The position numbers and the translations under genes are program-made. A model generated the notes under the pieces. That model was given only the letters and a program-made list of their open reading frames with translations. It searched no databases and was not told the origin of the DNA. From Acetatifactor sp. (GTDB lineage: Bacteria > Bacillota > Clostridia > Lachnospirales > Lachnospiraceae): a stretch of DNA of 64,000 bases. The stretch spans positions 1,471 through 65,470 of the forward strand of contig JAZPYS010000084.1 in NCBI GenBank assembly GCA_045544275.1, given 5' to 3'. Of this stretch, positions 7,032-10,663 are shown in pieces. Position 1 is the stretch's first letter, and the number at the start of each line of letters is the position of its first letter.

Positions 7032-7418
7032 TTAGGAAATTTTTTGAAGCTTTTGACTGTGCTCAGTCACAACAGTCTTCAGGATAGTAACATCCTCTTG
7101 TATGGCTTCGATTTGTGTGACACCGCTTTTGTAGCGGTTGTAGGTAGATGTATAACAACTTTCGATATTCTGCAGACGTGGAATGAGCTGAGTTTCAAGT
7201 TGAAGCTCCAGCCTTCGTGTGCGTGTGTCTAAGGTGTCAATTTTGTCTTCCAGAGAGATCACCTTGGTTTCCAGAGAAGCCATTCTGTTCTCCAGAGAGA
7301 TCACTTTGGTTTCCAGAGAAGCTACTCTGTCCTTCAATTCAGAAATATCTTCTTTGATAGGTTGTAGTTTTTTGTCAAATAAATTGGATAAAGCTAATAG
7401 TAATTCATTATCTGTCAT
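7032..7418 (-). CDS. Small coiled-coil hypothetical protein with internal 14-aa repeat
   Basis: 128 aa, heptad pattern (SLETKVISLE twice); minus-strand promoter TTTACA-N17-TAAAAT upstream and terminator downstream. Confidence 0.8.
   Translation of the reverse strand: MTDNELLLALSNLFDKKLQPIKEDISELKDRVASLETKVISLENRMASLETKVISLEDKIDTLDTRTRRLELQLETQLIPRLQNIESCYTSTYNRYKSGVTQIEAIQEDVTILKTVVTEHSQKLQKIS
7249..7332. repeat. 42-bp tandem repeat x2 inside the coiled-coil gene
   Basis: tccagagagatcac(c/t)ttggtttccagagaagc.a.tctgt.c at 7249-7290 and 7291-7332. Confidence 0.9.
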
Positions 7419-7632: not shown

Positions 7633-8910
7633 TTACTTGCAAGCTTCCAGTGCCTGTGCAAGGTCATTAATGATATCATTTACATTTTCGATACCAACAG
7701 ACAAACGAACCAGATCAGGGCTTACGCCGGCAGCCATCAGTTCAGCGTCATTCATCTGGCGATGGGTAGCAGAAGCAGGATGAAGTACACAGGTATGAGC
7801 ATCTGCAACGTGAGTAGCGATCATAGCGATCTTTAAGCCGGCCATAAATTTCTCGGCTGCTTTGCGTCCGCCCTTTACGCCGAAGGAAACTACGCCGCAG
7901 GTACCGTTTGGCATATATTTCTGAGCAAGCTCATAGTATTTGTTTCCGGGAAGTCCGGGATAATTTACCCATTCCACGCATTCATGTGCCTGCAAAAATT
8001 CTGCAACCTTCTGAGCATTCTCGCAGTGGCGAGGCATACGAACATGAAGAGATTCAATACCCAAGTTCAGCAGATACGCGTTCATAGGAGCCTGGATAGA
8101 ACCCAGATCTCTCATAAGCTGAGCGGTTGCTTTGGTAATAAAAGCACCTTCCAGACCGAACTTCTCAGCGTAAGTTACACCGTGATAAGAATCATCGGGA
8201 GTGGTCAGTCCCGGGAACTTGTCTGCGTGTGCGAACCAGTCGAATTTACCGCTGTCAACGATACAGCCGCCTACGGTAGCATCGTGACCATCCAAATACT
8301 TTGTCGTAGAGTGTGTAACGATGTCAGCACCCCACTCAATGGGACGACAGTTGATGGGGGTTGCAAAAGTATTGTCAACGATCAAGGGAACACCATGAGC
8401 GTGAGCGGCTTTGGCAAATCTTTCGATGTCAAATACGATCAATGCAGGGTTCGCAATGGTCTCGCCGAATACTGCCTTGGTGTTGGGCTGGAATGCTGCT
8501 TCTAATTCTTCATCGGAGCAGTCGGGGTCAACAAATGTAAATTCGATGCCCATGCGTTTCATAGTCACTGCAAACAGGTTGTATGTACCGCCGTAAATGG
8601 TAGAAGAAGATACTACGTGATCTCCGGCACTGCAAATGTTAAATACGGAATAAAAGCTTGCAGCCTGTCCGGATGAGGTGAGCATTGCTGCGCTGCCGCC
8701 TTCCAATGCACAGATCTTTGCTGCAACATAGTCGTTAGTAGGATTCTGAAGTCTGGTGTAGAAATAGCCGCTTGCTTCAAGATCGAAGAGCTTGCCCATT
8801 TCCTCACTGGAATCATATTTAAAAGTTGTACTTTGAACAATAGGAATCATGCGGGATTCACCGTTTTTCGGTACATATCCGGCCTGAATACATTTCGTTT
8901 CTCTTTCCAT
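7633..8910 (-). CDS. metY: O-acetylhomoserine aminocarboxypropyltransferase / cysteine synthase family
   Basis: YTRLQNPT, SSGQAA, ETIANP, DNTFATP, PLP lysine in HSTTKYLDGH, HPASATHRQ, RLSVGIE. Confidence 0.9.
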   Translation of the reverse strand: MERETKCIQAGYVPKNGESRMIPIVQSTTFKYDSSEEMGKLFDLEASGYFYTRLQNPTNDYVAAKICALEGGSAAMLTSSGQAASFYSVFNICSAGDHVVSSSTIYGGTYNLFAVTMKRMGIEFTFVDPDCSDEELEAAFQPNTKAVFGETIANPALIVFDIERFAKAAHAHGVPLIVDNTFATPINCRPIEWGADIVTHSTTKYLDGHDATVGGCIVDSGKFDWFAHADKFPGLTTPDDSYHGVTYAEKFGLEGAFITKATAQLMRDLGSIQAPMNAYLLNLGIESLHVRMPRHCENAQKVAEFLQAHECVEWVNYPGLPGNKYYELAQKYMPNGTCGVVSFGVKGGRKAAEKFMAGLKIAMIATHVADAHTCVLHPASATHRQMNDAELMAAGVSPDLVRLSVGIENVNDIINDLAQALEACK

Positions 8911-8996: not shown

Positions 8997-9024
8997 ATTT
9001 TACCATATCTGAGCAATTCTTCAA
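8997..9024 (-). promoter_or_regulatory. Putative metY promoter
   Basis: Minus strand TTGAAG-N16-TAAAAT with TG extended -10. Confidence 0.55.
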
Positions 9025-9083
9025 CTGTTTTATTTGGAGAAAAAACTCTCTTTTCTGAATTGTGTGTTTGATATATAAACACA

Positions 9084-9112
9084 TTGACAAAAACGGACAT
9101 TTACGGTCTAAT
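9084..9112 (+). promoter_or_regulatory. Putative sigma-A promoter at the head of the 52-bp array
   Basis: TTGACA(9084)-N17-TCTAAT(9107). Confidence 0.55.
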
Positions 9113-9367
9113 TTTATATTTCTACAAATTAAGCCGAACTTATTTTTCAGGTTTACGGTCATATTTATATGTTTTTATCATTTAGCCGTACTATTTTAGG
9201 CATATTTTACGGTTGCTTTCTAACCATGTATCATTTAAATCTAATAAGCAATTATATTTACGGTTTAAATAGACAAAAATCAAAATGAACCGTAATTCTT
9301 ATACATTATTACGGTTGAATCAAACACAAGACCAATATTAACCGTAATCATTCGTTTTATATACAGC
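9101..9367. repeat. Degenerate ~52-bp periodic array of TTACGGT/ACCGTAA heptamers
   Basis: TTACGGT at 9101, 9153, 9207, 9258, 9309; ACCGTAA at 9289, 9341; GCCGAAC 9133 and GCCGTAC 9185. Confidence 0.8.
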
Positions 9368-9480
9368 CTATATTGAAGAAAAGGTAATACCAACCTATTA
9401 GAAACACAATTTCGAAAAGGGAGAAAAATAATGTTTGGGGGATTGTTTTTTAGAAGAGGTGTGGTATGATACGAGTGTGA

Positions 9481-10197
9481 CTGCGTTTTTTTGATATAAG
9501 GCAGGAACCATTTTGTATCCACGGTGTATTTTGGGAAAATGGGATGTTTCGCAGGATACCGGAAGCGGTAGCCCAGAGTGTGAACGAAGGGGTTTATGGT
9601 CTGCACAGCAACGGAGCCGGAGGCAGAGTGCGATTTGTAACGGATAGCCCTTATGTGGCGATTAAAACAGAGTATATACCGGGGAAAATGCCTCACTTTG
9701 CATTCAGTGGAAGTGCCGGCTTTGATATGTATGTCAAGAACGGGGGCGAAAATCGGTATATGGGAACCTTTATGCCTCCCCTTGATGTAAAAGACGGGTA
9801 TGAAAGTGTGATTGATTTTACTGAGGGTGGAGAGAGAGATTACCATTAACCTGCCCTTATACAGTTCTGTGAAAAAGCTCTATATCGGTCTGAAGGAAGG
9901 CTGTATGCTGAAGGATGCACCGGAATATCGTATAAAAAAGCCGGTGGTATATTATGGTTCCTCTATTACCCAGGGAGGATGTGCGTCCAAGCCGGGAAGC
10001 AGTTATGAAAGTATACTGTTCCGAAGATTTGAGAAGCCAAAGAAGCAGGGGATGAGAATGTGTACTTTATCAGCGGCAGGAAGTTGATGGAGTTGGTGGG
10101 TGACAATGGAACGGTGGATAATTGTCATCCTACGGACAGTGGTTTCTTCAGTATGGCATGTGCTGTTGCAGAGGTGTTTGAAGAGATTGGGGTGTAA
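9481..10197 (+). pseudogene. SGNH/GDSL hydrolase (GxDLY N-terminal domain type) pseudogene
   Basis: Three pieces: SAGFDMY domain (frame 1), YYGSSITQG block I after a frameshift at (GA)5 9830-9839, then C-terminal AGDENVYF...DNCHPTDSG..GV* in frame 1 from 10033; middle of the SGNH domain missing; in-frame TGA at 9478. Confidence 0.85.
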
Positions 10198-10444: not shown

Positions 10445-10480
10445 ATATGCATGGCTTATATAGAAAGGGGAAATGAAAGG

Positions 10481-10663
10481 ATGAATGAAGATTTGAATTT
10501 TGAAGAATTAAAACAGTTCAACATTGACTATTATATTAATCTTATAAGAATTAAAAGACATCAAAAAGAGGTGAATCCGGAACTTGAATTTCAGTTAAAA
10601 ACTCAAAGAAATAAACTCAGTACAATGGGTGTGAATACGAAGGATTTTGAATATGAAGAGTAA
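10481..10663 (+). CDS. Small hypothetical protein (60 aa; ORF could start at 10451)
   Basis: Own promoter, purine-rich RBS AAAGGGG, helical sequence NPELEFQLKTQRNKLSTMGVN, terminator downstream. Confidence 0.7.
   Translation: MNEDLNFEELKQFNIDYYINLIRIKRHQKEVNPELEFQLKTQRNKLSTMGVNTKDFEYEE

Follow-up and report, generated by a model that had tools for sequence, protein, structure and literature searches.

What kind of element is a run of short inverted repeats that recurs about every 52 bp in the space between two divergent genes, with no gene for an evident partner beside it? We address this question for a stretch of 64,000 nucleotides from Acetatifactor sp. (Lachnospiraceae; GenBank assembly GCA_045544275.1, contig JAZPYS010000084.1, positions 1,471 to 65,470; hereafter the window), in which the heptamer TTACGGT and its complement ACCGTAA (together, the half-site) alternate as inverted copies along an intergenic array. 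A preliminary description of this DNA had offered two readings of the array, either as a helically phased protein-binding or nucleoprotein array or as a transcribed series of stem-loops loosely resembling guide-RNA arrays. Sequence comparisons show that the array belongs to a multicopy family that spans several genera and keeps a fixed geometry of five helical turns; they also show that a gene predicted to encode a nuclease fold is almost always preceded by such an array, and that the repeat motif tracks the clade of the encoded protein. This protein of about 263 amino acids, which lacks any Pfam domain, is here named AAP (array-associated protein). On balance, we favor the interpretation that the window array represents a partly decayed solo member of a Lachnospiraceae repeat system resembling the REP/BIME repeats and their REP-associated tyrosine transposases (RAYT), and that its partner is the nuclease-like AAP, which the window itself does not encode.

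A dispersed repeat family with five-turn geometry

In the window array, TTACGGT starts on the plus strand at positions 9101, 9153, 9207, 9258, and 9309 and ACCGTAA at 9289 and 9341, which gives periods of 52, 54, 51, and 51 bp, short linkers of 13, 15, 13, 13, and 13 nt, and long linkers of 24 to 25 nt. These positions and spacings are exactly those that had been reported, and the weaker half-sites listed at 9133 (GCCGAAC) and 9185 (GCCGTAC) are present as well. The preliminary description had named a permutation test as a possible refutation, and the array stays nonrandom under it: the 64-kb window holds 13 exact half-site matches versus 3.5 ± 1.9 in dinucleotide-preserving shuffles (8 in the largest shuffle), and 7 of the 13 cluster inside 250 bp. 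A stricter test, tilted toward chance, used random 633-nt regions with the dinucleotide makeup of the intergenic region; the half-site count never exceeded 4 in 20,000 of them, and in 3,000 such regions the maximum for any non-AT 7-mer stayed below 7. Palindromes of the form ACCGTAA-N13-TTACGGT with at most three mismatches occur 6 times against 1.28 expected, 5 of them in the register of the array. Tandem Repeats Finder did not report the array because its linkers have diverged.

To define the family more broadly, we scanned one genome per species (185,579 species) with the pattern TTACGGT-N22-26-ACCGTAA-N11-15-TTACGGT, which recovered 79 loci, compared with an estimate of roughly 7 expected by chance. 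About 60 of the 79 came from metagenome-assembled genomes (MAGs) of Lachnospiraceae and related Eubacteriales (Blautia, Butyrivibrio, Roseburia, Acetatifactor, Agathobacter, Faecalimonas, and others), and a single MAG carried arrays on up to 9 contigs, often at contig ends; the matches in other phyla were isolated half-site triplets. Fifty-five arrays contained at least 5 exact half-sites (31 in the longest). The motif search in relatives proposed at the outset found the same design in about 55 arrays from Lachnospiraceae MAGs, with several arrays to a genome. This design is AACCGTAA-N13-15-TTACGGTT followed by a linker of 23 to 25 nt, with (A)ACCGTAA / TTACGGT(T) as its constant part. The short linker measures 13, 14, or 15 nt and the long linker 23, 24, or 25 nt, and the two are anticorrelated, with 15 paired with 23 and 13 with 25; the resulting period is 52 bp (74 to 78 cases) or 53 bp (42 to 44 cases), which together account for ∼87% of cases. 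Half-site centers lie ∼21 and ∼31 bp apart, corresponding to two and three helical turns and placing all sites on one face of B-DNA with a five-turn period. The window array fits this family in its alternating half-sites, its linker ranges, and its homology to other members, with its own periods spanning 51 to 54 bp.

That half-sites are spaced by whole helical turns argues most strongly for recognition on DNA and not in RNA, although tandem copies cannot count as independent observations. Half-sites are invariant across genera, and no stem covariation is seen inside the ACCGTAA class. The period and the compensating linkers bear out the earlier proposal of phasing at about five turns, and together with the invariant half-sites and the lack of stem covariation they point to a protein-binding or nucleoprotein array as the better of the two readings first offered.

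Copies of the family are dispersed among many genomic contexts. Arrays lie upstream of genes, downstream of them, and between convergent gene ends, in both orientations and beside housekeeping neighbors of all kinds. The window copy is 70 to 79% identical over 200 to 309 nt, with linkers included and unit order kept, to seven other copies (L180, L184, L146, L161, L192, L185, and L148), none of which has a MetY homolog beside it; the array of L184 sits behind spoIVA. When the window copy is aligned with these homologous copies, the half-site columns are the invariant ones. The segments between the half-sites, which the guide-RNA-like reading had treated as variable inserts, are not unique: as linkers they are homologous between copies.

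Dispersal can also be followed within single genomes. In one MAG (JAZSMO), two 350-bp copies with unrelated flanks are 91% identical (318/350); for one copy, a related MAG holds an ortholog whose flanks match. Another MAG (SVFQ01) has three arrays at separate loci, 83 to 85% identical over 377 to 619 nt, one of which precedes an AAP gene. Near-identical loci upstream of AAP genes differ in having 5, 6, 7, or 8 units, and arrays fade into decayed units at both edges. These comparisons show arrays being copied between loci as blocks of ∼350 bp and changing by whole units, and the arrays behave like variable-number tandem repeats. At one locus upstream of an AAP gene (L262:2273-2327), public samples differ from the contig by exactly one 53-bp unit.

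No transposase, including any Y1_Tnp/RAYT-like protein, recurred beside arrays among the neighbors that we examined. Neighboring genes of ∼130 amino acids were considered as candidate transposases and rejected, as they encode ribosomal proteins S9 and L19, ArsR, and the like.

The family is chromosomal and not phage borne. The comparison with phage and plasmid databases that the preliminary description had suggested returned nothing, as a blastn search of the intergenic region against plasmids and phages gave no match. A scan of viral contigs for three direct TTACGGT copies at 50 to 54 bp recovered only coding hexamer repeats, and it was the inverted half-site that gave specificity. In more than 120 phage contigs (L001-L120), the hexamer TTACGG/TNCCGG recurs with a period of 6 over long coding stretches and swamps direct TTACGGT searches; these open reading frames (ORFs) presumably encode repetitive structural proteins. 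Two GC-rich phage contigs carry their own clusters of TTACGGT/ACCGTAA palindromes in an unrelated context (L129:5460-5540 and L130:10130-10195; for example, TTTACCGTAAGATCGGCGGGTTTTACGGTAA, which occurs twice), and these are probably a phage operator or iteron.

The array-associated protein

AAP is the only protein that recurs next to arrays, and the array lies 36 to 210 nt upstream of the AAP start. A single-sequence search recovered 3,189 AAP homologs and a profile search at least 6,637, all of them named "hypothetical protein," from hosts that include Blautia, Dorea, Muricoprocola, Sporofaciens, Lachnoclostridium, and others. As a rule, the gene lies after rplM-rpsI, and it is absent from the viral contig collection. 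All eight of the MAG and NCBI AAP loci that we examined have an array with a 52- to 53-bp period that ends ∼40 to 120 nt ahead of the AAP start, as do most metagenome loci; one of the eight has the variant half-site AACGTAA. Among 80 metagenome AAP loci, many contigs break 50 to 700 nt upstream of the gene. We scored an upstream region as periodic when it held at least two same-strand 7-mer pairs spaced 50 to 55 bp apart. Where 250 nt or more of sequence ahead of the gene was available, 56 of 68 loci qualified, compared with 3 of 401 control windows taken from these loci.

The upstream units are always inverted half-sites with a period of 52 to 53 bp, and it is the half-site sequence that varies. 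The classes comprise ACCGTAA/ACGTAA, AACCGT..ACGGTT, GCTGTA..TACAGC, (A)GTCAA..TTGAC(T), TCATCC..GGATGA, and GGCGAT..ATCGCC, and they follow the clades of the AAP tree while the geometry remains constant. Four other MAGs with ACCGTAA arrays encode an AAP with a matching upstream array. The preliminary description had found no effector gene adjacent to the array; this is true for the window, but for the repeat family a candidate partner gene exists elsewhere. At one AAP locus (L283:2250-2480), a second, different repeat of ∼45 nt (AAGAAAGCAAC.CAAAGGAAGA.CGG...) lies between a GGGATGA-type array and the AAP gene.

At the sequence level, AAP had no match in PDB, Pfam, or NCBIfam, and a search against PHROGs gave weak endonuclease and resolvase matches over residues 150 to 234. 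We modeled the protein with AlphaFold2 from 60 diverse homologs and obtained a mean pLDDT of 87.5; an earlier model from 23 close homologs had reached a pLDDT of 64, at which the fold search was meaningless. In the model, the N-terminal part, which resembles a prefoldin coiled coil, is built of two long helices with a three-stranded sheet between them and is followed by a helical linker and an alpha-beta-beta-beta-alpha-beta core. The best PDB matches of this core are PD-(D/E)xK nucleases (Bax1, DrdV, the R2 restriction-like endonuclease, arenavirus endonucleases, and BamHI), albeit weak ones with E values of at least 0.009. Comparison with predicted viral structures gave stronger matches, with E values of 1.7e-5 to 1e-2, among them endonuclease I, the TnsA N-terminal domain, DUF559, a Vsr-type mismatch endonuclease, a Holliday junction resolvase, and homing endonucleases. 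AAP is therefore predicted to combine a coiled-coil N terminus with a PD-(D/E)xK endonuclease fold of the TnsA/Vsr/DUF559 kind. Five residues, E160, D191 (within a P-D-F motif), E206, H207, and K223, show no variation, down to a member with only 30% identity, which speaks for a functional active site.

The window copy and its surroundings

The array had originally been delimited at 9081 to 9367; the array within these limits is real, but homology to other copies shows a wider element, which runs from ∼9043 to ∼9423, with approximate ends (the right one at ∼9400 to 9423) and no assigned strand. The match to L180 (78.6% identity over 309 nt) covers window positions 9047 to 9351 and that to L184 positions 9100 to 9395, and on the left a metatranscriptome contig of a variant copy diverges at 9043 and an insertion or deletion separates strains at ∼9045. 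Once decayed half-sites are recognized by comparison with other copies, the element contains ∼13 half-site positions in roughly 7 palindromic units, all given here on the plus strand. Unit 1 retains an exact right half-site, TTACGGT (9101 to 9107), and its partner at 9081 to 9087 has decayed to ACATTGA. Palindrome 2 (9133 to 9159; GCCGAAC-N13-TTACGGT) has a degenerate left arm, palindrome 3 (9185 to 9213) reads GCCGTAC-N15-TTACGGT in the window and ACTGTAC ... CTACGGT in sister strains, and palindrome 4 (9238 to 9264; ATCTAAT-N13-TTACGGT) has a decayed left arm at which homologous copies have AACCGTAA (ACCGTAA). Palindrome 5 (9289 to 9315) is a perfect ACCGTAA-N13-TTACGGT, with TTACGTT as the right arm in sister strains, and palindrome 6 (9341 to 9367; ACCGTAA-N13-ATACAGC) has a decayed right arm beginning at 9361. 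The final half-site, AACCTAT (9383 to 9389), is decayed and corresponds to AACCGTA in the consensus of the other copies. Two half-sites that are perfect in the window are broken in sister strains, and the window copy appears to be drifting.

A 28-nt inverted repeat with 79% complementarity (9046 to 9073 and 9396 to 9423) brackets the array. We considered it as the ends of an invertible promoter or of a miniature inverted-repeat transposable element (MITE) and rejected both, as its right arm is not conserved in other copies.

The array occupies a divergent intergenic region of 625 nt. To its left, outside the element, lies an O-acetylhomoserine sulfhydrylase-like gene on the minus strand (metY; Cys_Met_Meta_PP; 7633 to 8910), and to its right, also outside, a decayed GxDLY/SGNH esterase pseudogene on the plus strand (9481 to 10197), in which the first ∼21 codons are replaced, a frameshift falls at about codons 143 to 169, and 271 nt are deleted internally at ∼10032. 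The esterase is intact (355 amino acids) in eight metagenome contigs with an identical MetY. Further neighbors are a MarR regulator and DegV. A promoter had been proposed at the head of the array; the letters TTGACA (9085)-N17-TCTAAT do exist, but our promoter scan made no such call, and the TTGACA overlaps the expected position of a decayed half-site. Over the whole region, the scan returned 4 promoter-like sites versus 3.5 in shuffles. A promoter-like site for metY lies at 9024 to 8997 and a TGnTATGAT extended −10 element, which could belong to an esterase promoter, at 9462 to 9470; both lie outside the array and are better promoter candidates for the two flanking genes.

Several smaller features were noted around the array. 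Just to its right, at 9431 to 9469, a 12-codon ORF (MFGGLFFRRGVV) follows a strong GGGAG ribosome-binding site and has 8 codons in sister strains; it may be an esterase leader peptide, or nothing. On the minus strand at 7032 to 7418, a 128-amino-acid coiled-coil ORF contains 21/42-nt tandem repeats and is represented in sister strains by 128 amino acids, by 83 amino acids, or not at all, making it a strain-variable small gene. Between the esterase pseudogene and a gene for a 1,449-amino-acid BcrAD_BadFG/DUF2229 protein lies a 70-amino-acid ORF without a Pfam match (10451 to 10663); at this site, a 70-amino-acid gene is called in L128 and a 60-amino-acid gene in L123. The region downstream of the esterase varies among strains and holds a rhamnosidase, TnpB, or, as in the window, the 1,449-amino-acid BcrAD/DUF2229 gene. 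In one sister strain, an IS605-type OrfB/TnpB gene lies ∼700 bp past the esterase (L122:510-1613).

Analogous systems, alternative explanations, and a proposed mechanism

In its logic, the partnership of REP/BIME repeats with RAYT, known for example from E. coli and Pseudomonas, is the closest analog of arrays and AAP (PMC2817692, PMC3116915, PMC3337134). Like the arrays described here, REP/BIME repeats are short intergenic palindromes that are regularly spaced, alternate in orientation, and occur in many copies per genome, and RAYT and AAP alike are encoded by a gene that is present once per genome, is inherited vertically, and has repeats of its own class at its flank; in both systems, repeat and enzyme lineage change together. 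The enzymes themselves differ, as RAYT is an HUH/Y1 transposase and AAP a predicted coiled-coil protein with a TnsA/Vsr/DUF559-like PD-(D/E)xK fold. The repeats also differ, in that a REP unit is a compact hairpin of 20 to 40 bp with a GTAG/CGTC tag, whereas here arms of 7 to 9 bp are split by 13 to 15 nt and the consensus is tag free. The arrays are further set apart from REP by their period of 52 to 53 bp, a copy number in the tens and not the hundreds, a Firmicute family as host, and a mobilization that is only proposed.

Other repeat systems share individual features with the arrays. Pneumococcal BOX elements (boxA-boxB(n)-boxC) are dispersed and intergenic, occur in Firmicutes, and have distinct terminal modules; they share with the arrays an internal module of ∼45 to 53 bp in variable tandem number, whereas we found no terminal modules in the arrays. 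BOX elements are not known to have a cognate protein gene that carries its own copy. The centromeres and iterons of plasmid partition systems (ParR/parC of R1, omega of pSM19035) resemble the AAP arrays in being short repeats directly upstream of the gene for the presumed binder, phased for cooperative coating. These centromeres, however, consist of contiguous repeats with periods of 7 to 22 bp at one plasmid locus and are bound by ribbon-helix-helix proteins, in contrast to chromosomal, dispersed arrays with a five-turn period and a protein with a predicted nuclease fold. Type III toxin-antitoxin loci (ToxIN and CptIN, the latter found in Lachnospiraceae) likewise place tandem repeats immediately upstream of a nuclease gene, but ToxI-type repeats are direct RNA repeats of 36 to 45 nt that contain pseudoknots, and ToxN, a small RNase of the Kid/MazF type, is carried on mobile DNA, whereas AAP has a predicted PD-(D/E)xK fold and is encoded by a conserved chromosomal gene, often directly after rplM-rpsI, and arrays also occur far from it. 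No gene for a ToxN/AbiQ-family RNase adjoins the window array. CRISPR arrays are also regularly spaced, partly palindromic repeats, but they combine identical repeats of 24 to 48 bp with unique spacers, whereas here only the 7-bp arms are constant and the linkers share homology from unit to unit and from copy to copy. The earlier judgment that the window array is not a CRISPR agrees with these differences, as it has no long repeats, unique spacers, cas genes, or leader.

Among the alternative explanations, one would retain the binding array and dispense with the enzyme: AAP or another host DNA-binding protein would cover the phased sites, as ParR covers parC, to organize the chromosome or to insulate or silence adjacent genes, and arrays would be copied by ordinary recombination or slippage and would owe no mobility to a nuclease. 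Compatible with this explanation are the five-turn phasing and its compensating linkers, the array that directly precedes the AAP gene (a position that fits autoregulation), the lack of a transposition signature, and a prefoldin-like N terminus suited to oligomerization. It sits poorly with endonuclease-type residues that are invariant across the AAP family, with discrete 350-bp copies that have unrelated flanks inside one genome, and with a window copy that drifts without visible constraint, and we consider it unlikely, though it deserves to be taken seriously. If the arrays were instead transcribed as RNA stem-loops to be processed or bound by a nuclease, in the manner of CRISPR or ToxI, AAP would be an RNA endonuclease. 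As in toxIN, arrays immediately precede a gene with a predicted nuclease fold, and this position would suit such a role, as would the joint change of both inverted-repeat arms between clades; some PD-(D/E)xK enzymes are RNases, including the arenavirus cap-snatching endonucleases among the fold matches; and arrays upstream of AAP genes are rich in purines on the strand that is sense for the gene, with a mean of 0.61 that is close to the value for coding sequence. The window array is covered by metatranscriptome contigs, which are without strand information, however, and may be partly DNA. The proposal of stem-loop or guide-RNA-like transcripts in the preliminary description fares poorly, as on neither strand does the window array fold better than shuffles (z scores of −1.68 and −0.77), minimum-free-energy folds skip the local hairpins, and the stems are only 7 to 9 bp long. 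Searches of Rfam 15 at the gathering score returned no matches in the whole window or in 16 array loci, and at a relaxed threshold the intergenic region gave only chance-level matches (E > 4). Arrays in both orientations, some between convergent genes, and integral helical turns between half-sites, which have no rationale in RNA, make an RNA function still harder to support, and we regard it as improbable.

Two further explanations tie the window array to its immediate neighborhood or to a different mobilizer, and we judge each of them very improbable. The position between two divergent genes, together with TTTACG half-sites that resemble −35 boxes and a TATCAT 17 to 18 nt downstream, might suggest a local operator through which a transcription factor controls metY and the esterase. 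Such a role is unlikely because homologous copies have unrelated contexts, lying beside other genes and behind gene ends; in addition, promoter-like sites are no more frequent than in shuffles, the sites decay between strains, and other motif classes are unlike promoters. A nonautonomous MITE- or BOX-like element moved by an unrelated transposase, with only an incidental association with AAP, would account for discrete copies of ∼350 bp dispersed within genomes, and the inverted repeat bracketing the window array and the IS605 TnpB near the locus in a sister strain could be taken in its favor. Against it stand the lack of conservation of that inverted repeat in other copies, the failure to find terminal inverted repeats or target duplications, the lack of a recurring transposase next to arrays, and the fact that, within a genome, the array preceding the AAP gene groups with the dispersed arrays in one sequence family.

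The favored interpretation, a decayed solo copy of an array system partnered by AAP, must also be weighed against several observations that count against it. We found no AAP gene within the 64-kb window and none that could be tied to its organism, as the sequencing runs compared were metagenomes. Coinheritance of the gene with its upstream DNA could partly yield the match between motif and clade; a very divergent AAP (L173; 30% identity) has the same ACCGTAA motif, and a search for specificity-determining AAP positions gave no clustered signal. Dispersal away from the AAP gene is shown for the ACCGTAA class only, and for one GCTGTA-class locus the public runs revealed no extra loci, only an insertion or deletion of one 53-bp unit. 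In the arrays we found neither terminal inverted repeats nor target duplications and hence no transposition signature. Finally, comparison of the window with its sister strains shows no greater conservation of exact half-sites than of linkers (2 of 49 positions changed versus 13 of 218; Fisher p = 1), and already degenerate half-sites changed at 6 of 42 positions.

With these points taken into account, AAP is probably the factor that reads the half-sites on DNA. A single-copy AAP encoded elsewhere in the genome would recognize the half-sites, its N-terminal coiled coil would mediate oligomerization, and the oligomers would cover one face of the array cooperatively, which at the upstream array of the AAP gene would result in autoregulation. 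The endonuclease domain would nick arrays, leading to gain and loss of units and to homogenization between copies, and occasionally to the copying of whole arrays into new intergenic sites. The window copy would be a passive one, drifting between the divergent metY and esterase promoters. That AAP coats arrays, controls its own promoter, and nicks arrays to resize, homogenize, and seed copies, as RAYT does for REP/BIME (PMC2817692, PMC3116915), is an extension by analogy that we put forward as a possibility and hold to be rather doubtful as a whole. More generally, we tentatively propose, without considering it the likelier outcome, that AAP and its arrays form a previously undescribed repeat-enzyme system found throughout the Lachnospiraceae, which would be a counterpart of REP/RAYT outside the HUH enzymes. 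In it, an endonuclease of homing type and TnsA/Vsr/DUF559 fold, domesticated and equipped with a coiled-coil arm for oligomerization, would read lineage-specific split palindromes spaced five helical turns apart, regulate its own expression through the array before its gene, and maintain, resize, and occasionally seed arrays, with the window array as one seeded copy. Searches of the literature by motif and by concept, with incomplete coverage, found no description of the repeat-AAP pairing, and only the REP/RAYT papers were relevant. Relative to partnerships of the REP/RAYT type, what is new here is the enzyme fold, the repeat geometry, and the host group.

The Lachnospiraceae are among the most abundant gut bacteria, and both the repeat family and AAP have so far gone without annotation in their genomes. 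The one-unit steps observed between strains could make the arrays useful as strain markers. If the link between arrays and AAP holds, it would explain the recurrent contig breaks 50 to 700 nt upstream of the AAP gene in gut metagenome assemblies. It would also provide a naturally occurring series of protein clades that differ in their split-palindrome specificity while the geometry stays fixed, a resource for studies of the evolution of DNA recognition. In that case, the arrays and AAP would represent a second, mechanistically different instance of the lasting association of a genome with a repeat-enzyme pair that REP and RAYT exemplify.

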